Part shown: positions 8,110 through 53,446 of the stretch, piece by piece | Layout: every line of letters starts with the position of its first letter | Position numbering within the stretch: the stretch's first letter is position 1 | Source: Cyanidioschyzon merolae | Taxonomy: Eukaryota | Length of the DNA stretch: 64,000 nucleotides | Assembly (NCBI GenBank): GCA_000091205.1 | Contig: AP006497.2 | Strand: one strand, 5' to 3' | The notes under the pieces: model-generated | What the model saw: the letters and a program-made list of their open reading frames with translations, nothing else | What the model was told of the DNA's origin: nothing | Databases searched by the model: none | Position numbers and translations under genes: made by a program

Positions 8110-9643
8110 CGCCGCGATATGCCAAGAGGCGACGCCGCCCTTGTCGCAAAAGGCACTGGAACGCTATTGGCGTAGTGAGCGGTTTCCGGCTTGGGGCGCA
8201 GCGCTTCGGCCCTGAAAATATGCCAAGCTGCTCTGGGTCTGTCTGATGACTGCAGTGGGTGATGTTGTTGGCGGTACATCCAGTATCACAGCAAGCATTG
8301 ATGACGGATGCGGTACCTGGAGATATCGGTGACGCGGACGCGTGTCTCTCGCTGGTGTGTCCTTGTATGGGCTGGGGAAACGTGGTGACCTTCGGGGATG
8401 AACGGTGACACCAGACCAGATAACTGTCACGAGACGCGCGTCCGGGGAATTCTGGTGAGCTTCATCGCTTCGATACCAGTTGGGACGGGGCTCGCGGGGA
8501 CCGTGCGGAAGTGCTCGCCCTTACGCATGCACCCAACAGAGAAAAGTTGCAGTGAGATGGCGCATCCCTGGCGGATGGTACATGCGCTGGATACGCGCCC
8601 TGCAGCATCGAGTAGCGTGCATGCATGCGTTAGCTCCAGAGATGGCCATGGATACACCTGAAAAGTGGGATCAGACTGGGCGCCGATTCACGATCTGCGG
8701 GACTCGAGCTCCACGAAATGATTTTGTAGGATGCGTAAATTTTACGCAATGGACATATGGATGCGCGCTTTCCATGACGCGCAAGTCTGTCGTGGCAAAG
8801 GTAGGGGGTACGATCCGCCAAGTGCGCTTCGTATCATTATGGACAAATAGGAGATCCGATTTCACCAGCGTCTCTCCCTTGTCGAGATGTGCTGCGTCCC
8901 GGTTGCCGATACTCCGCATCGTAGTCGAATAGATTCCGACCTGTTCCCTATATGCTGCCTGAAATCAAACGCTCACATCGACATCTTTCCACGAACAGCG
9001 TTCCGGAAATACGACGCGTGGAAGTGAAAGCCCGCAAATTTCCTCCGTCAGCAACATGCGTCCGAGACCCTTGAACGATGCATGTCGAGATCCACGGCGA
9101 GCGAGCGACATTGAAGCTGCCGCAGTAGACGTCCCTCGAGAAGCGCAACGATAAGCGCGCTCATGCCCAACACTCTCAAGCGCTATGGTCGCATTCGGCC
9201 GGGTGCATGCCTTGCGTACCGTCATGCGTCTTGCGTGCTTTTGGAATACCCCACTATCCTGAACGCTGAGCGCATGCCTCATGAGCGGGTAGCTCATGCA
9301 CATCGCTGAAGACTGCAACGCTTACCTTATCTTTCGAGAGGTATCACACATCGTGCAGGTACCCGTACCACACAGGCCTGCGGACGAAGCGCGTATCAGC
9401 AGCTGCCGTCAGCTGAGCTAGCCGCATGCGCCAAGTCCACGCGGGAATCTTGACGCCGGCGCTGATGCAGGCCTTTCGGAAATAGGAACTTGCTGCATTT
9501 TAATGTACATAAATGGAAAGGGCGAATCCGTGCACGCGCAGATGCATGCCGTGCGCTGCATCGCGTTTGCCTGCGGCCGCGTACGCTGAACGCATCGCTG
9601 ACACCGCCTTGAAGCACCAGGAACGCGCCTTGCCGAGCTAAGG

Positions 9644-11860: not shown

Positions 11861-13447
11861 AAGCGGAAGTCGAGGAACCTTGAGGCATATTTGGCTATAC
11901 GATGGATGTCGACCAGCTTGCAGCACGCTGGTACCGCTTCCTGCACAGTTTACCCATGGCTTGCAGCTGAGAACGCTATGCTCGACGCGCTGGAAGCATA
12001 TCTGTGTGTTGTATCGATGGCGATACTCAAGTTCGGAGCGGGCATCGATCCAACGAGCTCGCTGTCCACGACTGCGTCTAGACGAACAAGTTGATCGTTC
12101 AGCATAGCTCGAACAGGGCAGCTGCAGTCCAGCGAGTGCAGCCTAATGACCAAGTTGTCGTCTCATTTTAAACGATACATGCGTACGCATCCAGACGCTG
12201 AACACGCGTCCCCAGAATTGGATACAGTTCCAGTAGTCCAAAAAATCCGGAAGCGAATAGCGACCAGCTATGCAGCTTACGTGGCCCGACAAACGAGCGC
12301 CCAGCCTGCACAAGGACACATGCACCAAGGTCCCCAGAAACAGTCCCCGGTACGAGTTCCTTTGGATAAGCACCGCTATCGCTGAACTCGGCCTGCAATA
12401 CCTTAAGCAACGGGTCAGCTGGTGTGCTGGAAACGCTTCCATCCTTCGATTCATCGATCGGTTCAGCAAAAAGAGCCGTGTCTAGCGACGAAACCGCTTT
12501 TCGCACAACCTGTTCCAATGGTTGAAGCATGTCGCAGGGATATCGCGCTCTAGAGAAGCGCGTCTCTGCTTCATCGCACAGGAACTTGGGAGTAGGGGGT
12601 TGATGCATACCTCACCGCGCACTGAAAAACACACACAAAAAAATAAGAAAAGAAAAATGCGCATAATCGGAGAACGCTGGCCTAAGTACACATTTTGTCC
12701 ATGAAAAAAATCGCACAGGAACGAGGTCACAGGTTCCCAAGCGACAGCCTACACACTAAAACACGTTACATGTATTGTTCCAGCTAGAAGCGCTCTCCCC
12801 GTGCCGTTCGCGAAAACAAATACCAGCGCTAGAAGCGTGCTCGTCACTATGGATAGTTTAAAGCCGGCGTGCTTTGAAGCGCGATACGGCACGTTCCAGA
12901 AAACTCCACGAGCACGGAGCCTTTTATGCAGTGCCGAACGAGAGCCTCGAGGTCTGCTCGCGCTGCTGGGTGCACCGGGAAGGGCCTCACGGGCTTTTCC
13001 AGTCCATAAAAAGCACAGCTCAGCGCTATTCACTCGGGAACTCGAACAACATACCATCGCTTGGCGTACTGTGGCTGTGCTTGCAGTTTCCCAGTCGGTA
13101 CGTTGAAAGCTGATGCGGCTTAAGAGCGTATATTTTGTTCCAGAGGATCTTTGCGTCTCATCAGAGACCTTTGAGAAGCGCAAGCCCCACTCCGAGTCCA
13201 TACCATGGCACCTATGTGCAGCGCCACCACCGCTGCTCCGCTGTCGACGCTCACCCGATGACCAGTCCCGGAACGATACCCAGCGGCGATGGCGTACGTT
13301 GCTTCGTTTCGAAAAGGGTTGGCGAGCCACGTGCGTCGCTTCTTCGTCGCAACACGAAGCCGACCAGTGTGTGTTTAGCATATAGCACTCGGTTTGGAGA
13401 AGCTTGAGGGTGTCTACGCGCCGACCACGCTGACCCAGCAGACGTCC

Positions 13448-16400
13448 ATGGCTTGCAGCGGGAAGCGCTCTGCACGAGACTGCATCGAGCGCTGTGAGAG
13501 CCTCAACTTTCCGAGCTGCTTCAGGCGATCTGGCTTCAGCTTCATTGGTCCCTGGACGGCACATGAGCGTCAGGATGCATCCATTTTCATACCGTGTTGC
13601 CCGATATCGTTTCAGAAACGGAAGTTTGTACGTTTTAGACGAGGTTCCGCGAGCGTCCGGCGTACGCAGCGCGGAGGCGACGTTCGAGCGAGTTCGAGTG
13701 ACCAGAACGGCTCCGTCGCCCGTGACGACGTAGACACGCCACTAGCCCGACGGGGGCATCACCCGGAGACGCAGCCTCCTGACACGACTCAATTCGCTCA
13801 AGCAGGTGCGAACGGCGGGTCAGAGACACCAGCGAAAACGGCGTTTCAACCAGCGCTGGCCCCGAGCCTTGCACACACGTTGGAGCGACGCCTGCCGCAA
13901 CTCCGCAGCACGTTTCTCAGCCTATTCGGATGTATTACAGTGCTATTTATTCGCTTTGCAACGGCCACTGTTTTCCTGGGCATCATGGTGTTGGCCTGGC
14001 TCGGATACTTTGCCGCGAATCAACGGCTGGGTGCGCTCGTTCACAGCGCAGCTTCAACGTCGCTAGGACGCTCCATTAAAGTCGGGAGACTGAAGCGGCT
14101 CGTATTGCCACTCGGTGTTGCCGCTGGAAAACTCGAGATGGCCCCGGATGCCTCCAAACCCTGTGGTTCACTCGGTGCGGTGCAAGTACGACTAGCCATC
14201 GAGCCGCGTCGCTGGATAACCCTTCGTACTGGACGAGTACGTTTCGATGTGCAGTTCCGGCGGGTTGCCCTGGAACTACACCAGCATCAGCCGGGCGAAT
14301 GGGACCTCGGATGGTCAGTCACGCCAGGCAAACGCACCGACGATGCCTCCAGCGACGTCAACACCGCCGATGCACTGCCCAGCGGGCAACGAGCCCGCAG
14401 TGTCCCAACACAGGAGTTACCAGCGAACGGTGCCGAGCAAGCGCTGCCTCCGGCGTTAGCGGAAGCGACGCTACCCGTGGCGCTTCGTGTGGTAGAGTTC
14501 AAACGCTCAAGCGTCGCATTGGACGTGCTAGGGACAGGTGACTCGGCCTTTGGCCGAGGAATTTATGTGTTCCGGGGGATTCACGGGCGCCTGGTGTTTG
14601 CCCAGGGCATGAACGCGCTCACGGGCAAGCTGTCGTTCGAAACTGAGCACCGGGGAGCGGGATCCTGCGAGCTCGCCCTCGACTTGCAGCGCAATATTCA
14701 TCGTATCAGCGTACAGACTAGAGCGCTGCCGGCGAAAACTGTGGTAGCGCTGCTGAACCTGCCCTTCGAAAGCGATACAGGTCGAGTGCACGGCCAGGTC
14801 GCGTTGGTGCTGCGACCCGATGCCAAGGCTCCCGAACTGACCGGAACCGGTAGATTGCAGCAGGTAGCACTGCGACTCGCCCCTGACGCGCCAAGTTTCA
14901 CGGGCATATCGGGTCGCCTCCGCTTCGATGAATCGATGGTGATCTTCGAGGGCCCAACCGGTTTCTTCGGGCAGCTACCCATAACCGTCGTCGGGTCCAT
15001 CGACTTGTCCAAAGACTACAATCTGATTGGTTTCGTGCGTCGGGTAGCGATCAGCGACGTGCTCAAGACGTTTCGAGTGGAGTCTCCGATTCCTGTCCAT
15101 GGGAGCGTCAAGGCAGAGGTTCGCATGCATGGCCCACTGGAGAGTCCGCTTCTCACTGGAGCTGCGATTTCAGTCGGAGCTCCCTGGAGAGCGGATCGAA
15201 TTCATCTGCGAAATGCCCGGGCAGACTTCCAGCTTGATACGCGTTCAATGGAACTGCAGATTGCCGCAATGGAAGCGACGCTTCAGGATGGCGGTCAACT
15301 TAGCGGCCATGGTGTACTGAAACTGGCTGCGAACGGTGCTGTGACCGCCTCGTCAATTCGGGATACCGAAGCAAACGAGTCATCGTCTCCGGTTGCAGTG
15401 AACGATTCCAGAGCAGAGCGAGATCCTGCAACACAGGAGCCGTCTGTTCAGCTGGCGCTGAACCTTCGCGGTGCCCACGCTGGCCCCTTGTTGGCGAGGT
15501 ATCTCCATGAACCCGGCAAGCAGGGCACCGTTATGGACCCTATTGGCCGCCTGTCTGCGGAGCTGACGGTTTCAGGTCCGTTGAGCGAGGCGGAACTCAA
15601 CTTGCGGTGGCGTCTGGTGGGCACTGCGCCACCAGAGGCATCGCAGACGGTTGCGTCTTGCGGGGCGGAAGCACCCACACCGAATGCGAAGCTCTATGGA
15701 GCGGCCTCCGGAACGCTCCGGATGCCCCTGGTTGCTCGACATACCAATGCGAATATCGATATCAATACAGGTACCGGTGCTCGTGCGTTAGCTCCAGTTC
15801 CAGCTCCTCCTCGTACTGCTGTAACTGGGAATACCAGTACGGATCCGGAGCCTCAGCGCCTTCGTTTCACCCTAGACGCCTATGGTATCGACCTGCGTCG
15901 TCTAGCATGGCGACCGGAATGGACGACTGCTCCCAAGGCACTGCTGGACACGCGTCTTTCCGCGGATGTAACGCTGCAACAACCGAAGCGCTCTACAGCC
16001 GACGCCGCACAACGCCAACAGGCTCCTTGCGTAGAAGCGTTTCTCGACGTGAGACGCTTGCAGCTGAACGAGTTCGGCTATACGCGTCGTCTTGCGGGAA
16101 AACTGCGCTTTCATCCAGACGAGGGTGTGCAGTTCCAGGCGCTTCCGCATGAGCACAGCTCAGCGCAACGCAGCGCTGCTTCGACTCTGCAGCCAGGAAG
16201 CGACGAACTCCAAAAGCTACCTGTTTTCCTCAGCGTTCAACTGGACCCGAGTTTCCGACGTGATCTGGCGGTGCATCTTCGTCGTGATCGTTTCCGTCTT
16301 GATGTTTCGTACCAGGAAAACAGCCGCTTCGAAGCATGTCTCGAAAATATGCCCATCGAAGAGTTGCTCGGCCCCGATTACGGGGCTGGTGGCCTCGTTG

Positions 16401-16924
16401 AAGCCACCTTGTCCGTTGACCTGCAACAGGAGCGTGGCACGGGCTCGTTTGCCCTCCGTGATGCGTATTTTCGTCAGTTTCGTTGCCGGGCGTTCGCCGG
16501 TGAGCTCTTCTGGCTCGATAAGACCGTGTTTCTGCAGAACAGCGTGATCCAGCAAGCGCGTTCCGAATACCACATTGAGGGCGTCTACTCGTCCAGCAAT
16601 GTTGCCGTGGGGTCAGCTGCGTCAACGCTGCCCAGTTGGCAGACCAAGATCGTGATTCCTCGCGGGGATATCGCGGAGCTCGCCTGTCTCGCCCAGGCGG
16701 TGAACGGGCAACTGGACCCAACGATCCTCTCGTATTGGGAAATTCCCCCGCATCTCTCTCTGGAGGAGCAGATTCTCTGGTTTGCAGACTATCTCTGTCA
16801 GAGCGCTGATGTGTCTCCCGACGATTTTCTCAATGACGATCGCACACTGCCGCGAAGGGCAGAGCCCGGGAGCAGCGCTTCCCCTGCTGGCGACGCAAGC
16901 GCCGGGTGCCGTCATCTCAGCTGA
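13448..16924 (+). CDS. TamB/TIC236-like (AsmA/DUF490 family) giant membrane protein, N-terminal part (frame 2)
   Basis: The track ORF starts at TTG 13394; the first ATG is at 13448. An N-terminal TM anchor (LFGCITVLFIRFATATVFLGIMVLAWLGYF) is followed by a TamB-like start (SLGRSIKVGRLKRLVLPLGVAAGKLEMAP) and long beta-rich repetitive segments. The reading frame ends at 16924 but the protein continues in another frame from ~16782-16950. Confidence 0.7.
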   Translation: MACSGKRSARDCIERCESLNFPSCFRRSGFSFIGPWTAHERQDASIFIPCCPISFQKRKFVRFRRGSASVRRTQRGGDVRASSSDQNGSVARDDVDTPLARRGHHPETQPPDTTQFAQAGANGGSETPAKTAFQPALAPSLAHTLERRLPQLRSTFLSLFGCITVLFIRFATATVFLGIMVLAWLGYFAANQRLGALVHSAASTSLGRSIKVGRLKRLVLPLGVAAGKLEMAPDASKPCGSLGAVQVRLAIEPRRWITLRTGRVRFDVQFRRVALELHQHQPGEWDLGWSVTPGKRTDDASSDVNTADALPSGQRARSVPTQELPANGAEQALPPALAEATLPVALRVVEFKRSSVALDVLGTGDSAFGRGIYVFRGIHGRLVFAQGMNALTGKLSFETEHRGAGSCELALDLQRNIHRISVQTRALPAKTVVALLNLPFESDTGRVHGQVALVLRPDAKAPELTGTGRLQQVALRLAPDAPSFTGISGRLRFDESMVIFEGPTGFFGQLPITVVGSIDLSKDYNLIGFVRRVAISDVLKTFRVESPIPVHGSVKAEVRMHGPLESPLLTGAAISVGAPWRADRIHLRNARADFQLDTRSMELQIAAMEATLQDGGQLSGHGVLKLAANGAVTASSIRDTEANESSSPVAVNDSRAERDPATQEPSVQLALNLRGAHAGPLLARYLHEPGKQGTVMDPIGRLSAELTVSGPLSEAELNLRWRLVGTAPPEASQTVASCGAEAPTPNAKLYGAASGTLRMPLVARHTNANIDINTGTGARALAPVPAPPRTAVTGNTSTDPEPQRLRFTLDAYGIDLRRLAWRPEWTTAPKALLDTRLSADVTLQQPKRSTADAAQRQQAPCVEAFLDVRRLQLNEFGYTRRLAGKLRFHPDEGVQFQALPHEHSSAQRSAASTLQPGSDELQKLPVFLSVQLDPSFRRDLAVHLRRDRFRLDVSYQENSRFEACLENMPIEELLGPDYGAGGLVEATLSVDLQQERGTGSFALRDAYFRQFRCRAFAGELFWLDKTVFLQNSVIQQARSEYHIEGVYSSSNVAVGSAASTLPSWQTKIVIPRGDIAELACLAQAVNGQLDPTILSYWEIPPHLSLEEQILWFADYLCQSADVSPDDFLNDDRTLPRRAEPGSSASPAGDASAGCRHLS

Positions 16925-19382
16925 CGGCAGGCGAGCACAGCGGAAACGACCTCTGAAGCCACCGAGTCTCGCTGACTTGCGCGGAAGCTATCGGGGCACC
17001 ATCTCCATGAGCAGCGGTGCAGAGCGACTGGCCTTTGACCTCAACGGCGAACAGTGGGCCATCGGGCCGCACGAACTCGGTACGATGTGTGCTCGCGGGG
17101 GCATCCATCGAGGAATCATTAACCTGGAACAGTTATCGTTTCAGGTGGCGTCTTCGTCGGGGGCTATGGTCCATCTCAGTGGCACTGCCGACCCAGCGGG
17201 AGCCTTACACGCGAACCTACATCTAGCCAAAGTTCCGCTGCACCTGCTCTCTGACTACGGACTGGCACCGGTTCGTCTCACCGGAGTGCTGCACTCGTCA
17301 GCAGAGTTAGCCGGCACGGTTCGGGATCCGACACTCCATGTGAAAGGTCTCTGGCAGGAAGCATCGCTGAATGGTCTTCGGTTGCGGGACCCGCAGGCCG
17401 AGCTGCGCTGTGACCTCGGACGCTGTCGTGTCCGCGCTACCGCAGCTGTTCCAGTTCAGCAGCGCAACTGGGGTCCGGTGCGCCCCAGTTGGCGCTTCTG
17501 GAAACGCCCTAGGCCCAGTGTCGCGCAACAACGCTGGCTGGACGGCAGCGAAACCTCTACAGCGAAACCGGGAGCATCCCGAGCGGCTTCTTCAGATGCT
17601 GCTGCTGCTGCTGCTGCAATGACGCTTCACGGGAGTATGCCTTTGAGCGGCGTTCGTCTTGAGGGGTCGCTTCCGATTCGACTCGCTCATGTGCTGGAGC
17701 GTCTCTTGGACCCGCGGATACCTCTGACAGAACGCTTTACCACGTTCTCGTTGCACGACCTGCTCGTAGCGACAGACGCGAGCGAGTCGATGCAGATTGA
17801 TGTGCAGGTGAAACGCAGTGGTGCTGCGCTTGTCGCAGCTTTTCTTCCTCAGGTGCCCGTTGCAGGCGGCAGCGCTGACCTGCGGATTCGTTTACGCGGA
17901 GCGCCGCTTCAGCCCCAGGTTACCGCTCGATGTAGTCTATCGGATGTGCGAATCGCCCCGCCGGACCTGGAAACACCCATTGAGAGCGTGTATGGCGAGG
18001 TCGAGCTTCGCGACTGGATGCTGCACGTCCACTCGATGACTGGCCTCGTCCAGGGTCGTGTGTGGTCGCTCAAAGGCGTTCTTCCTGTATGGACGCCAAT
18101 GACGAACTGGGACGCCAGTCCCAGCGACGCGGAGAACGTACGAGAACCCGAACCGCTTACGTTGCAGCTGGAGAACCTGCCAGTGCATCTGCGGGATCGC
18201 TATCACGGCAGGGCAACGGGTCAGGTCACCGTTCATGGCACAGCGCTGCAACCGGTACTGCGGGGCTCGCTGACCCTCCACGATGGCTCGATCATGTTAT
18301 TGCCGGGATCCTCGAATCGAAATACCCAGCGAATAACGAATGCAAACAGTAGTAGTAGTGGTAGCATTAGTAGTAGTAGTAGTGGTGGTGGTGGTGGTGG
18401 TGGTGGTGGCGGTGTTGGTAACAGCACTACTACTACTACCAGCAGCAGTAGCAACAGCAGCAGTACTAGTACGAGTAATGGTAACGGCAGTAGCAACAAT
18501 ACGACGCCGCTGCGCCCGGATAACGAACTCGACATGCGCACCTACGAGTCGGATGAGAGTTTTATGAATCCTTTTCTGGAGCTCGTCGAGCAAGGTTTCC
18601 CAGACATTGTCTTTGAAGAGTTTCGATTGCGTTTGGGGTCGCGAACGCGGGTCGTTTTCCCGCTGGTGCTCAGCCTGCATCTGCAAGGAGACGTCGACCT
18701 GAACGGACCGCTCAGTGACTTGCGACCGAGCGGCTCGTTTCGCATTCTCGACGGGTCCCTCAATTTGCTTACCAACCGCTTGTACCTCATTCGATCGGTT
18801 CCCAACTCGGTGAGTTTCAGTCCGGATGCTGAGCAGGGCGCGCCGCTGGACCCCCTGCTACACGTCTCGTTATCCGATCGTCGCAAGTATACAGTTCGTC
18901 TGCGAAACGTACGGGCAAGCAAATGGGAGAGCGCACTTGAGGTGCTGGACGCCCAGGGTGTTCCCCTGGAACGGAGTCAACTGGTAGCGATGCTCAATGA
19001 GCGTCTCGGGAACGTTTCTGCAAACCTGCAACTGCGAAATGGTGGCTCCTTGGCGCTTCGATCCCTGCTGAACACGTATACCGTCGGGGGCTCGCTTGGA
19101 CGTGGTGGTGGTACGCTCTGGCGCCTCAGTCCGAACGTGACGGCACGACCCGAGAGCACAGCGCTGCCCGGCACCGGCTTGCTGTCAGAGCAACTCGGAG
19201 TGTATGGTGAACTTGAGAGTGGTCGCTTTGTTTTGTCATTTTCGCGCGATATGCAAGGTTTGGGGATCACGTCGATCTCCTATCGACCGTGGGAGCGTTT
19301 CAAGATGGAGTACGAGAAGCGGGAGACCGGCGAGCAGCACCTGGAAGCGAAGATCTACCTCAGAGGCGCCAGTGATGATTAG
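16782..19382 (+). CDS. TamB/TIC236-like protein, C-terminal part with DUF490-like domain (frame 0); continuation of the 13448-16924 ORF
   Basis: This frame opens with TTG and has no credible ATG start. The C-terminal region matches TamB DUF490 (..DLNGPLSDLRPSGSFRILDGSLNLLTNRLYLIRSVPNSVSFSPDAEQGAPLDPLLHVSLSDRRKYTVRLRNV..EVLDAQGVPLERSQLVAMLNERLG..). The two ORFs together give about 2040 aa, the expected size for plastid TIC236/TamB. Confidence 0.7.
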   Translation: MQTISVRALMCLPTIFSMTIAHCREGQSPGAALPLLATQAPGAVISADGRRAQRKRPLKPPSLADLRGSYRGTISMSSGAERLAFDLNGEQWAIGPHELGTMCARGGIHRGIINLEQLSFQVASSSGAMVHLSGTADPAGALHANLHLAKVPLHLLSDYGLAPVRLTGVLHSSAELAGTVRDPTLHVKGLWQEASLNGLRLRDPQAELRCDLGRCRVRATAAVPVQQRNWGPVRPSWRFWKRPRPSVAQQRWLDGSETSTAKPGASRAASSDAAAAAAAMTLHGSMPLSGVRLEGSLPIRLAHVLERLLDPRIPLTERFTTFSLHDLLVATDASESMQIDVQVKRSGAALVAAFLPQVPVAGGSADLRIRLRGAPLQPQVTARCSLSDVRIAPPDLETPIESVYGEVELRDWMLHVHSMTGLVQGRVWSLKGVLPVWTPMTNWDASPSDAENVREPEPLTLQLENLPVHLRDRYHGRATGQVTVHGTALQPVLRGSLTLHDGSIMLLPGSSNRNTQRITNANSSSSGSISSSSSGGGGGGGGGGVGNSTTTTTSSSSNSSSTSTSNGNGSSNNTTPLRPDNELDMRTYESDESFMNPFLELVEQGFPDIVFEEFRLRLGSRTRVVFPLVLSLHLQGDVDLNGPLSDLRPSGSFRILDGSLNLLTNRLYLIRSVPNSVSFSPDAEQGAPLDPLLHVSLSDRRKYTVRLRNVRASKWESALEVLDAQGVPLERSQLVAMLNERLGNVSANLQLRNGGSLALRSLLNTYTVGGSLGRGGGTLWRLSPNVTARPESTALPGTGLLSEQLGVYGELESGRFVLSFSRDMQGLGITSISYRPWERFKMEYEKRETGEQHLEAKIYLRGASDD
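18340..18520. repeat. Compound trinucleotide repeat block ((AGT)n,(GGT)n,(ACT)n,(AGC)n) coding an in-frame Ser/Gly/Thr/Asn low-complexity tract
   Basis: agtagtagtagtggtagcattagtagtagtagtagtggtggtggtggtggtggtggtggcggt...actactactaccagcagcagtagcaacagcagcagt lies inside the TamB-like ORF and codes SSSGSISSSSSGGGGGGGGGGVGNSTTTTTSSSSNSSSTSTSNGNGSSNN. Confidence 0.9.
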
Positions 19383-20097
19383 AGGCACTGGCTGGGGCCG
19401 AGCACCGCCACCCGCGCCAGCACCGCACTGGTTTGGTTTCATTACGAGCGCACGAAGATTGTCGAGTGTTTCTTTCCAGTGCAGGCGGTCTCGGGACGTA
19501 AGCGCCAACCATATCAGAGTCGTGAGCAGTGCCTTGCTGGCAACTTTGGCTGGAAGACGAGCGGCAGAAATGCCGGCTTTTGCGGGCAAAGCAAGCAGTT
19601 CTGGTGTATTCAAAGACGGTGCCTGGAGCAGGTACATGCTCTAGTGATGGTCTAAACTCGTTTCAGATGAACATGGAACACTGAACGTTTCGCTCTGTTC
19701 CAGCCTGGAGCATTTGTTTCGGAATGTGTTGGTATGAATAGCATGGCATTCGAGCTGGAATCAGACTGGCTTGATTCTTCACATGTAGGTATAGGATTTT
19801 GCGGGGTCGTTCATTCGGGGTGACCCCTTCGATGCTTTGCCTATGGTACGCGTTACGTCACCAGAATCATGACAATTGGTGACACTTCCAAACAGAAATT
19901 CGTGAAATAAGCACTATGATCATTCATTGCATACGTATAGGTTCACGATTGAACCCGTTTCTTGATACGGACCATGATCAAAATATGCATGCTTCAAGCT
20001 TTCGACCTCTACGTTTCAAAGCTACTCGCAGGTGCAGCAACGCAGGCCGCCGAACTGCCGAGAAGCGGCAACTCGGCGTCGTTCCAGGACAGTTTTT

Positions 20098-21499: not shown

Positions 21500-22234
21500 T
21501 CAGACAGAATGGTCATGCGCCCTATGAAGTGCCTCCCGTAGCCCAGCAATCACACGCCCAGCATCCGGCCCTGCACCGAATACAGCAGAGCCAGACACCA
21601 GAACATTGCATCCTGCCTGAGCAGCTGCGTCTGCGGTTGTCAGGCCGATGCCACCATCCGCTTGAATATCAAGGAGCGGATATCGTTCGCGAAGAAACCG
21701 CACCTTGGGTAGACATTCAGGCATGAAGCTTTGCCCACCGTGTCCAGGCTCAACGGTCATAATCAGAACCATATCAACTGCGGCTGCGTCTACCAGCGGA
21801 AGCACAGCCTCAACTGGGGTACTCGGGCGAAGGGCCACGGCTGGTCGCGCCCGTAACGCTCGAACACGCTCGCAGAGTGCCAGCGCCATGCGCAGACCGT
21901 CTTCTCCAAACACCTCGTAGTGGAAGGTGCAGCCCAGGTTTGGAGCTGGGCCCTGGTTATCGCCGTTGACGCGGGCGAACTGCTCGATCCAGAACACCGG
22001 CGCGGTGGTCATAAAGTGGCAGTCCAGAAACACTTGTTGGCCGACGGCTCGTCGGAGACCCTGGAAGACAACAGGCCCGAGTGTCAAGTTGTCGACAAAG
22101 TGCCCGTCCATGACGTCCACGTGCAACCAGTCGGCCCCGGCGTCGAGCACGCGTTTCGCCTCAGCTCCGAGGTTGCCAAAGTCACAAGAGAGCAACGACG
22201 GTGCAACGATGGTCGCTAGAGGTTTAGACTGCAT
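21500..22234 (-). CDS. RPE: Ribulose-phosphate 3-epimerase (cytosolic type)
   Basis: The conserved RPE N-terminus begins at ATG 22234 (MQSKPLATIVAPSLLSCDFGNLGAEAKRVLDAGADWLHVDVMDGHFVDNLTLGP). Also present are ..DCHFMTT.. and ..IMTVEPGHGGQSF..DIQADGGIG..VLVSGSAVF. The track start at 22315 is a GTG, not a real start. Confidence 0.9.
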   Translation of the reverse strand: MQSKPLATIVAPSLLSCDFGNLGAEAKRVLDAGADWLHVDVMDGHFVDNLTLGPVVFQGLRRAVGQQVFLDCHFMTTAPVFWIEQFARVNGDNQGPAPNLGCTFHYEVFGEDGLRMALALCERVRALRARPAVALRPSTPVEAVLPLVDAAAVDMVLIMTVEPGHGGQSFMPECLPKVRFLRERYPLLDIQADGGIGLTTADAAAQAGCNVLVSGSAVFGAGPDAGRVIAGLREALHRAHDHSV

Positions 22235-24590
22235 CTTCTCGTTGACTGCAAAAGGGAGGCAGCACCAGTGCTTTCGCTGCTCGGGCTCTGCTGGTCGAGA
22301 GGAAACGCGACTCACACACGGTTTCTGGGCCTCTGCAGTGCAGCCTCGTCTCCGGAAACGGTACGCTGATGCGACCGGGCAACCGAGTCGAGCGAGGCGG
22401 CGTTCGCGTCTGCGGTAGCTCCAGCAACGGCAAAAGCAGCAACCTCAGGAACGAGGATGCAAGCAACGTTGCGTATGTTGAGGCCGTCTACAGATTGGAT
22501 TTTTGCACGATACTTGTTCACAGTCGGACTGATGCGTGGCGGGTTTCAGGTGCCGCACGACTTGGGTGTTGGCATATGCTTCGGGGAATCTCAGCAGCAT
22601 CGAAACAACGTGCGTGTTTCAGTTCCTGGGGAAACTTAACAGCGCTGATAGAAAAGCACTGCTGGCGACGGAGTGTTGCGGTATTCGCCCTCCTGGTGTC
22701 GAGGTCGGCAAATGCCGCACCATAGTGTTGTGCGAAGCGACTGCATGCTCGACGAAAGCGTTGCGTATCGTCGGATGCTGAGAACGGCATGCGGCTGCCA
22801 AGTCAGCGGTGTGTCGCTGTTGCGGCCGGTGTCGTGCGCTTGGGGTTGGCATCCCGGCTTTTGGACGACATCTGCACCAGTTGAGCGGATACACTGAAAG
22901 ACCGGTCGCACGCTGGTTTTGTTTGCAAGTGCAACGAGCGTGGTGTCGGTGGAGCGTTATGCGCTCCTATCTCGATGCAGGGGCTCCTTCTTCAGAAAAG
23001 CGCTAAGCAGCATAAAAAACTGAGTGAACGAAGCGATCACTGGAGGCCCTAGCACACCTTTCCAGCTTTGGACGCTTTACGAGGGGCTTTTCTTATCGAC
23101 ATGTGCAGCAGCTCCCTTGCGGACGATAAACAGAACGACTTGGCGGAACGGCGACAGATTCATGTTCACGAAAGCGGAAACGTACCGCCCCTGCATCAAG
23201 TTCTCCAGATCCGCACTGCGAGGTTCCGCTGCCTCTGATGCATACCAGTACAACAAATCATCCGGTGCTTGTCTTGAAGGATGTTCGGGGACGTGTCAGA
23301 TGAAGGCACTGCAACCATGGCAGTCACTGGAGCGACATACGACGATGCCGTACTCTTCGAGACGATCCCTGCAACCGTACATGATGCAGCGTAGCGTCAC
23401 CATGGGATAAGCGTGCGTACCTTTGTCCGGTCGAAATAGGACTCTTGGCAAGGCGGCCTGCTCTTTCTGGTGGAGAATTCGATGCCAACTGGCATGCCAA
23501 GTACACAAATGGAAGTCATCGAGTCCCTAACCAACAATTTTTCATCCTAGAGCAAGAATCATGTATTCTTTTCTGATAAGAACGAAGAGTTTTACTCGCT
23601 TTCCACGCTCGTATGCTTTCTCGTTGAAAGACATGTACCGCAGCGATCGAGTGGCACAGCTAGACATGCTACAACGCACCGTTTCGTCTGGACCGTGCTT
23701 GACGCCCTTGCATCGTCATCACGACAGCGACATACTCGCTCCGGCAGCAAATAGTCCGACTTGCGAGCGGCGCTTATTTTTGTACAGAGAAGTCGTGCGC
23801 CGCAAGGACATGATCTACAATGACAATCACGATTTTCACTTGTGCTGCTGAAGACGCGTTGCCGCCTCGGACAGAGGCCGTGGAGGTCGCACCGCCTCCG
23901 CTCATTGCCCGTGAGTGGCTCTCGTTGATCCGGTTGCAACGCGCTGTCAGCGGGGAACGATTGCCACCTGGCGGGTGCACGCCCCTTCCCTCCGAGGCAG
24001 ACGTAAATAGTACGAATGCGGGAGAGCCTCTGACATGGCGCTCGAGGTCCCAGACGAACGGGCGAAACGCACGATGGCTGCACCACCACCGCAGATCGGT
24101 GAGTCGCTCTGCGCTCATTTTTGATCCAGTGTCTGTTGGATAGAACGCTTGCGGTGGTGGTCAACAGGCTGCAAAGTTTCGTTGCCGGGTCCGAAACGGG
24201 ACTGTATGAGGTACTTTTGGGATACGCGTGGAATCCAATGCAAGTGTCTTCAAGTGCATGTTCAAATGCTTGTCCCTAGACACATCCAGACATGCCTAGA
24301 GGGATGCACTGATCTCCATACGAATACGCATCGACTCATGTGCACAATTTTTCATGGATATTCATGGAGGCCTGAGCTTGGACACGCGTCCACAAATCCA
24401 AAGATCGTCGTATACACAGGTACTCACGGGAACACGCGACATGTGCGATCAGAAGATTGCACCATCGCTTCACAATGGAACGCAATGGTATCCTGGGCAG
24501 TAATATCGAAGTAAAGAACAAACGTATCGTGCACCAATTGCGCAGAGAAATCGTTTCCTTTTTAAAGATACAGTGTTTCGGCCTTGCTGA

Positions 24591-52156: not shown

Positions 52157-53446
52157 CTAGCCACGCATTGCCATGGAGCCTTGGTAAATTTTCAAAAGGT
52201 CCTCAACATCCCTGGGGCTTCCGCAAATGAACGGCTCTCGCTGATGGACATCTCGCGGAACAATATCCAGAATTCTTTGCTTTCCCGTGGTCGCTATACC
52301 GCCGGCCTGCTCCATGAGATACGCCATAGGTGCGCACTCGTACAGAAGACGCAACTTGCCGTTCGGGTTCTTCTTATCACCAGGGTATCCAAAAACGCCG
52401 CCGTAAATCAGCGTGCGATGGACATCGCCAACGAGAGATCCTATGTAGCGCGAAGAATAGCCCTTTTTCTTCATCGATCGAATATATTCTTGAAGAACAG
52501 GGTCCCAGTTATCCGAGTTTGCCTCGTTGAAGGAGTAGATCTTGCCACGCTCCGGAACACGAACATCTGGGTGCGTCAAAACAAACTCGCCAATCGCTGG
52601 GTCCAGAGAAAAACCCTGCACTCCGTGACCAATAGACAGCATGAAAATCACCGATGAGGAGTAGAGAATGTAGCCCGCTGCCACCAGATTCGCACCCGGT
52701 TGCAGCGTCTGCACGAGGCACTGCATTTGTCGCTGACTTATATCCGCGTCCTCGGGTCCCGTCAGACAGTGCTCGCCGCTGCGCATTACACCAAAAATCG
52801 TACCCGTGGCGATCGCTGCATCCAAATTCGAGGATCCGTCCAACGGGTCAAACGCAGCAATAAAGTCACCTGTATACGCCTCTTCCATGAGCGACACTGG
52901 CTCGTTTTCCTCTTCCGAAGCCAAGACACCTAGTTTCCCTGTTGAGCGTAGCGCGTTCTTGAGCACCTCGTTCGTCAACACGTCCAGCTTTTTCTGCTCC
53001 TCGCCCTGCACGTTGACCGAGCCCTGAAGGCCAGTCAAGTTGCTCACGCCCGCTCGGGCGACCAGTGAGGCAATCTGCTTGCCAGCTGTCGCTGTGGCTG
53101 TTATCAAAGGAGCCAAATCAGCGGTCTCTGGATGCTGCCTCTCCTGTTGGAGAACCCACTGTCCGAGTGTCATGGGTAGGTCTAAAGCTGCGCGCAGTCT
53201 CACTGCACCAAAGCGACGTTGATGCCTTGTTTCCAGCGGCAAGACCGACACCGATACCCTTCCCCATATGTTTGTTGAGCGCAGCTTAGGAGCCCCAAGG
53301 CTAACGAAAGCGTGCGGTGCTTGCTTCGCCATGAATATCGTTGCTGGCTCCTTGAGGTCAGCAAGGAGATGAGTGCTGCAAACGTCGGGCGTCGCAGCGG
53401 CGGGCACGGCCGCAATCGTCGACGGCGGCTCGATCGGCTGCCGCAT
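52157..53446 (-). CDS. FBP: Fructose-1,6-bisphosphatase, plastid-type with redox-regulatory Cys insertion
   Basis: FBPase blocks are present (..LTGLQGSVNVQGEEQKKLDVLTNEV.., ..GKLRLLYECAPMAYLMEQAGG..). The insertion EHCLTGPEDADISQRQMQCLVQTLQPGANL sits where chloroplast FBPases carry their thioredoxin-regulated Cys loop. An ~90-aa Ser/Ala/Arg-rich N-terminal extension is consistent with a transit peptide. The ATG at 53446 was verified; an alternative start (MAKQAPHAF..) is possible. Confidence 0.9.
   Translation of the reverse strand: MRQPIEPPSTIAAVPAAATPDVCSTHLLADLKEPATIFMAKQAPHAFVSLGAPKLRSTNIWGRVSVSVLPLETRHQRRFGAVRLRAALDLPMTLGQWVLQQERQHPETADLAPLITATATAGKQIASLVARAGVSNLTGLQGSVNVQGEEQKKLDVLTNEVLKNALRSTGKLGVLASEEENEPVSLMEEAYTGDFIAAFDPLDGSSNLDAAIATGTIFGVMRSGEHCLTGPEDADISQRQMQCLVQTLQPGANLVAAGYILYSSSVIFMLSIGHGVQGFSLDPAIGEFVLTHPDVRVPERGKIYSFNEANSDNWDPVLQEYIRSMKKKGYSSRYIGSLVGDVHRTLIYGGVFGYPGDKKNPNGKLRLLYECAPMAYLMEQAGGIATTGKQRILDIVPRDVHQREPFICGSPRDVEDLLKIYQGSMAMRG

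Follow-up and report, generated by a model that had tools for sequence, protein, structure and literature searches.

The stretch of DNA analyzed here, referred to below as the window, comprises 64,000 nucleotides (nt) of contig AP006497.2 from the rhodophyte Cyanidioschyzon merolae. On its plus strand it carries a gene for a protein of the TamB/Tic236 type, which the sequence as deposited divides between two overlapping open reading frames (ORFs) (Table 1). According to the ORF list, ORF1 (positions 13394 to 16924) encodes 1176 amino acids (aa) and ORF2 (positions 16782 to 19382) encodes 866 aa, both from a TTG start; the frame of ORF2 is shifted by +1 from that of ORF1 (16782 - 13394 = 3 × 1129 + 1). 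The original prediction, made from the sequence, had assigned both ORFs to a single TamB/TIC236-like gene of about 2040 aa with a change of frame somewhere between positions 16850 and 16950; the two ORFs and the peptides quoted from them are present in the ORF list and its translations. Three-frame translation of positions 16701 to 16970 shows coding-like sequence that quits one frame and resumes in the other: the ORF1 frame terminates in ...PAGDASAGCRHLS followed by a stop codon, and the ORF2 frame reads ...GAVISADGRRAQRKRPLKPPSLADLRG. A Pfam search of ORF1 returned no match. The same search placed the TamB profile PF04357 (formerly DUF490) on residues 456 to 701 of ORF2, with an E value of 4.1e-17 and a score of 63 bits (gathering score, 22.4).

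Table 1. Features of the TamB/Tic236 gene and of a neighboring gene, in window coordinates
Feature	Position	Strand	Basis or remark
Entire TamB/Tic236 coding sequence, surplus G included	13448..19382	+	5935 nt = 1977 codons + stop + 1 surplus G
N-terminal extension, aa 1-153, R/S/A-rich; putative plastid transit peptide	13448..13906	+	Composition
Membrane anchor, aa 154-191, the only hydrophobic transmembrane-like stretch	13907..14020	+	Hydropathy
Conserved post-anchor motif SLGRSIKVGRLKRLVLPLGVAAGKLEMAP (SLGRSIKVGRL...), with family-wide conserved R208	14060..14146	+	
Overlap of ORF1 and ORF2, both artefactual	16782..16924	+	143 nt; false stop codon of ORF1 at 16922-16924
GGG run that should be GG; the surplus G gives the apparent +1 frame break	16904..16906	+	
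Modeled C-terminal 808 aa, almost all-beta TamB-like fold	16956..19379	+	AlphaFold2
PF04357 TamB (DUF490) match	18147..18884	+	Profile positions 28-209 of 381
Low-complexity insertion (S/G/N/T) at aa 1641-1686, within the TamB domain	18369..18506	+	Partly AGT/GTG trinucleotide repeats
Most conserved C-terminal part of the TamB domain; helix RSQLVAMLNERLG and terminal beta strands	18507..19379	+	
Ribulose-phosphate 3-epimerase	21500-22315	minus	PF00834, E = 8e-56

ORF1 and ORF2 together make up a single gene. A word-index search gave as its closest match a 1012-aa "hypothetical protein" from the red alga Cyanidiococcus yangmingshanensis, which aligns with residues 501 to 1142 of ORF1 at 58% identity and continues unbroken onto residues 59 to 399 of ORF2 at 64% identity. 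Since this orthologue runs without interruption across the junction, both window ORFs must belong to the same gene, as the original prediction had proposed. Separating the conserved blocks are 136 nt (positions 16820 to 16955), or 45 codons plus 1 nt, whose counterpart in Cyanidiococcus is a poorly conserved linker of 48 aa. The reference annotation presents a different picture: read from its first ATG (position 13448), ORF1 is exactly BAM81577.1 / XP_005537613.1, a "hypothetical protein, conserved" of 1158 aa that is probably CMO228C. This entry, in which ORF1 stands alone as a protein, is what would favor two independent neighboring genes. However, ORF2 begun at either of its first two ATGs (positions 16809 and 16833) corresponds to no C. 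merolae 10D reference protein on record, and no ATG-started version of it is known there; orthologues and homologues of 1500 to 2400 aa are collinear over both parts; and an N-terminal anchor combined with a C-terminal DUF490 domain makes up a single architecture. We therefore regard two separate genes as very unlikely. It appears instead that the C-terminal part holding the TamB domain has been left unannotated and that the reference proteome is without the DUF490 domain of Tic236 altogether. The 90% cluster that contains BAM81577.1 also holds AYA72647.1 and metagenome proteins of 1887 to 1976 aa.

The base at fault is a single G in the GGG run at positions 16904 to 16906, within the interval in which the original prediction had placed the frame switch. 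From the ATG at 13448 to the stop at 19382 the sequence measures 5935 nt, that is, 3n+1. Deleting one G at 16904 yields an ORF of 5934 nt whose product is identical over all residues (1977/1977 aa) to AYA72647.1 (P0016 in our protein set; UniRef100_A0A385NFP1), deposited in GenBank as "putative TamB/Tic236 [C. merolae strain 10D]" with 1977 aa. The length of about 2040 aa proposed earlier must be corrected accordingly, as it took in the overlap as well as codons that precede the ATG. The same difference was seen in DNA from environmental relatives. Two independent contigs, each from a different Joint Genome Institute (JGI) metagenome, L002 (sample 3300050370) and L003 (sample 3300051093), were reached via the proteins P0003 and P0008 and are 98.8% and 99.2% identical, respectively, to window positions 13000 to 19600. 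Both have GCGCCGGTGCC where the window has GCGCCGGGTGCC, i.e., exactly one G fewer at 16904. The only other indels that separate these contigs from the window within the gene, of +18, -21, and -3 nt at positions 15792, 18379, and 18408, respectively, are all multiples of three. At the protein level, each of the 10 cluster members spanning the site reads through in frame as GDASAG-AVISADGRR, and GDASAGCRHLS followed by a stop is found only in the reference annotation.

The published record of the strain agrees with this assignment. When two 10D descendants were resequenced at approximately 190x, a G deletion at chr15:592,904, in CMO228C/Tic236, was confirmed in both (Sato, Moriyama, and Mori-Moriyama, Microbiol Resour Announc 2020; PMC7291098); as cited there, this deletion had been reported by Chen et al. 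(2018, Nature 564:125). If the window corresponds to chr15:576,001-640,000 (with a start after 9 x 64,000 nt), we infer that chr15:592,904 is window position 16904, the first G of the run. The resequencing report lists 81 indels relative to the published sequence that are common to both strains (PMC7291098), and changes shared in this way are the signature of errors in the reference. We thus consider it very likely that the locus is one intact nuclear gene on chromosome 15, encoding a TamB/Tic236-type protein of 1977 aa, and that its split between two frames is an artefact of a reference GGG that is GG in the genome. The surplus G would bring the false stop codon into the reading frame and thereby leave the C-terminal 40%, with its DUF490 domain, outside the annotated protein.

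Among the three explanations that the original prediction had offered for the break, a sequencing or assembly indel is the one favored, over a real frameshift or recoding and a tiny intron, by the resequencing and by the two contigs with GG. Programmed +1 ribosomal frameshifting would link both ORFs in translation, and the arrangement would suit it, given the +1 frame of ORF2 and the 143 nt that it shares with ORF1. A true recoding site would nevertheless be conserved, and this break is absent at the site from the near-identical contigs L002 and L003, from the resequenced strains, and from Cyanidiococcus; moreover, the site falls within the poorly conserved linker. Recoding is accordingly extremely improbable. 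A similarly negligible likelihood attaches to a very short intron, such as the 25-nt GT...AG stretch at positions 16906 to 16930. On reading the sequence, its removal (25 nt = 3n+1) would join the frames equally well, but AYA72647.1 and nine metagenome proteins retain AVISADGR, the very residues that such an intron would take out, and the DNA of the relatives differs by exactly one G. In addition, the known introns of C. merolae are far longer than 25 nt.

A further alternative is a real frameshift allele, in which the extra G was truly present in the culture or clone sequenced in 2004/2007, as a lineage with a truncated Tic236 pseudogene, while other 10D descendants kept the gene intact. In its favor, the reference was finished by Sanger sequencing and called 100% complete, and the original strain is unavailable for comparison (PMC7291098). 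Against it, the G is absent from both resequenced descendants of 10D, and the indels common to them form the pattern of reference errors (PMC7291098); it is also absent from the environmental relatives L002 and L003. A precise reversion in both lineages would be improbable, no second disabling change has accumulated across the 5.9 kb of the gene, and loss of the Arabidopsis orthologue emb2410 is embryo-lethal (PMC6683743). On balance, such an allele is unlikely. That it was genuine in 2004/2007 and that the laboratory lineage nonetheless lived with a Tic236 devoid of the whole C-terminal half, DUF490 included, is quite unlikely; if it were true, the envelope bridge would be dispensable in C. 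merolae under laboratory conditions. A pseudogene as such was rejected as a candidate: a lone 1-nt difference, itself absent in the resequenced strains, separates the window from an otherwise perfect ORF of 1977 codons. A scan for sigma-70 promoters and terminators around the junction gave one antisense chance match, which is irrelevant to a eukaryote.

Several points weigh against our reading of the locus as an intact Tic236 gene with a reference error. The placement of the window start at chr15:576,001, by which the published deletion is matched to position 16904, is itself an inference. The 10D stock that was originally sequenced no longer exists (PMC7291098), so that an error of base calling or assembly is not formally separable from a real mutation carried by the DNA or clones that were sequenced. 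The mechanism of the C. merolae protein is extrapolated from its homologues, and what plant TIC236 does in protein import is itself debated, since no Tic236 density was found in the map of the Chlamydomonas TOC-TIC complex (10.1101/2022.11.20.517165).

Other frame breaks were observed in two related sequences. The TamB/Tic236 orthologue of Cyanidiococcus yangmingshanensis on VWRR01000004.1 (L001:8666-14276) shifts frame four times, with tblastn frames 2, 3, 1, 2, and 3 in succession; the shifts lie near L001 positions 9250, 9450-9514, 10040, and 13025, and none falls at the position of the C. merolae break. Assembly indels are the probable cause in that genome too. The gene is annotated there only as separate proteins of 1012 aa and 380 aa, and its N-terminal part is unannotated. 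Likewise, one protein from a JGI metagenome (P0015, 1550 aa) ends in ...ESKYPANNECKQ, which is the other-frame translation that appears in the window as the ORF at positions 18062 to 18352; this ending implies that the contig in question carries a separate frameshift, either inside the trinucleotide repeat region or upstream of it.

Read as one protein, the corrected product shows the architecture of the family. In a simple Kyte-Doolittle test with 19-residue windows, values of at least 1.6 were reached only at residues 154 to 191 of the 1977 aa, in keeping with the single N-terminal anchor described in the original prediction. Residue R208, behind this anchor, is nearly invariant in an alignment of 40 full-length homologues (alignment A1), in which conserved positions span R208 to P1895. 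Most homologues have their anchor at about residues 20 to 50 and the conserved arginine at about residue 65, compared with 154 to 191 and 208 in C. merolae; the position of the anchor relative to this arginine is the same in most of them. A subset of homologues of 2000 to 2250 aa resembles the C. merolae protein in that both anchor and arginine are displaced by 100 to 190 residues. The R/S/A-rich N-terminal extension, missing from most homologues (presumably bacterial ones), would fit an added plastid-targeting sequence. On the full-length corrected protein, PF04357 matches residues 1567 to 1812 (E = 5.4e-17), so that the DUF490 domain anticipated by the original prediction was found both here and on ORF2. 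The S/G/N/T insertion within this domain is disordered in the structural model described below, with a predicted local distance difference test score (pLDDT) under 50 at model residues 452 to 535. Beyond it, residues 1686 to 1977 are 86% identical to Cyanidiococcus by tblastn, and the model shows helices at model residues 673 to 689 and 697 to 706, with strands thereafter to the end. In a side observation, in-frame length polymorphisms between the reference and the environmental Cyanidioschyzon contigs lie at 15792 and within 18348 to 18419; those of -21 nt (18379) and -3 nt (18408) fall in the AGT/GTG repeats that encode the S/G-rich insertion.

To place the protein in its family we compared both sequence and predicted fold. 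Queried with the C-terminal 808 aa, an exhaustive HMMER search retrieved 465 homologues at E <= 1e-3, and 291 at E <= 1e-10; they are mostly 1500 to 2400 aa long and aligned at their C-terminal parts. Together with these homologues, the lengths of the ORFs in DNA of 55-60% GC are far beyond chance. Few homologues carry a name, examples being a "TamB C-terminal domain-containing protein" from Cyanidium caldarium and a "TamB, inner membrane protein subunit of TAM complex." A word-index search with ORF2 had returned the Cyanidiococcus fragment only, low-complexity words swamping the candidates, and with the clean C-terminal 291 aa it had returned nothing; because the exhaustive search gave so many homologues, we read this null result as a limit of the method. 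Similarly, a single-sequence phmmer search of the PDB found no TamB, for which the family profile was needed: when PDB sequences were compared with the A1 profile, only Escherichia coli TamB matched (23sp_B, 3e-7; 9xdc_B, 4e-7).

The AlphaFold2 model of the C-terminal 808 aa consists nearly entirely of beta strands (mean pLDDT, 73.4; predicted template modeling score, 0.59). Searched against the PDB with Foldseek, it retrieved at E <= 1e-3 only TamB from the electron cryomicroscopy structures of TamAB (9xdc_B, 9.3e-7; 9xdd_B, 6.8e-6), followed by the beta-taco crystal structure TamB963-1138 (5vtg; probability 1.00, 3.5 A over 126 columns). The protein thus combines a DUF490 match above the gathering threshold, a single anchor, a beta-rich C-terminal model, and collinear full-length homology, all of which are features of the TamB/TIC236 family. 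By profile and by the predicted fold of its modeled C-terminal 808 aa, it is a member of the TamB family. The score for NCBIfam NF047952 (autotransporter assembly complex protein TamB) fell short of the equivalog cutoff, at 16.7 versus 825 bits; on its sequence, the C. merolae protein is a distant member of the family and not an equivalog of proteobacterial TamB.

The protein was compared with three known systems. The nearest counterpart is AYA72647.1 (CMO228C), which is the same locus, with all 1977 residues identical once one G is removed at 16904; the window, in contrast, is the reference sequence with the surplus G, whose annotation ends at residue 1158 without the TamB domain. Plant TIC236 (Arabidopsis TIC236/EMB2410, maize DEK5, and rice SSG4) belongs to the same size class of about 2000 to 2200 aa. 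In DEK5, a transit peptide at the N terminus precedes a single transmembrane domain, which is followed by a very long body and, at the C terminus, by a TamB/DUF490 domain (PMC6683743); the architecture in C. merolae is alike, with a putative transit peptide. This likeness to plant TIC236 is drawn from the described architecture, and the identity to unnamed homologues of 2000 to 2400 aa is about 22 to 30%. Unlike the plant proteins, that of C. merolae has the low-complexity S/G/N/T insertion within its TamB domain. Bacterial TamB (PDB 9xdc, 9xdd, 23sp, and 5vtg), one of the AsmA-like or repeating beta-groove bridge proteins, shares PF04357, the single N-terminal anchor, and a fold matching the predicted one; the C. 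merolae protein exceeds E. coli TamB (1259 aa) in length by about 700 aa and has an N-terminal extension of about 140 to 150 aa.

What is known of these relatives allows a function to be proposed. Plant TIC236 is an integral protein of the inner envelope with its C-terminal domain in the intermembrane space, where the domain of the Arabidopsis protein binds the POTRA domains of TOC75, and TOC75 and TIC236 are homologues of TamA and TamB (PMC8931380). Bacterial TamB docks on TamA via DUF490 and forms a bridge with a hydrophobic groove that takes phospholipids to the outer membrane (PMC13119328, PMC8593681, PMC13507460). Extrapolating from the family, we consider it most likely that the N-terminal extension would direct import of C. 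merolae Tic236 into the plastid and that its single hydrophobic helix would anchor it in the inner envelope membrane. The body would then cross the intermembrane space as a long beta-groove rod, and the C-terminal DUF490 domain would contact an Omp85-type protein of the outer envelope, Toc75 or Oep80. In this way Tic236 would join the import machineries of the inner and outer envelope and/or conduct lipids along its hydrophobic groove like bacterial TamB.

The single-base reference error behind the split is on record, and for the gene itself a description and a corrected sequence were already available (AYA72647.1; PMC7291098). The suggestion that the presence and integrity of this gene would be of interest in itself is therefore not sustained, given that the gene is intact and that, according to PMC7291098, Chen et al. 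(2018) had described it before. The significance lies in annotation only and involves no new biology: the reference entry BAM81577.1 / XP_005537613.1 (1158 aa) is the truncated product of a 1-nt reference error, and surveys that use the reference proteome could wrongly score red algae as being without a complete TamB/Tic236.

The surroundings of the gene confirm the source of the DNA. Eight ATG-started ORFs of the window are identical to C. merolae 10D proteins encoded on a 902,900-bp contig, and the exact matches include a GDT1-family protein (BAM81572.1), STT3 (BAM81575.1), CMO230C, RPN10, CMO238C, and Mrd1p; the rhodophyte-like genome that the original prediction had considered is that of C. 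merolae 10D. GDT1, STT3, the Tic236 gene, and ribulose-phosphate 3-epimerase follow one another in the same order in Cyanidiococcus. No tRNA genes or Rfam families were found in the window. At the 3' end of the Tic236 gene, an overlapping antisense ORF of 133 aa (positions 19236 to 19637, minus strand) is also called in L002 (8785-9186) and L003 (8536-8937); a Pfam search of this ORF gave no match, and it is probably a spurious call. Farther along, the ORF for fructose-1,6-bisphosphatase (positions 52157 to 53446, minus strand) encodes 429 aa from its first ATG, the form used by metagenome gene callers. The C. merolae 10D entry BAM81591.1 has 391 aa, so that the annotated start differs from that of the 429-aa ORF, a difference that may affect the predicted targeting sequence.

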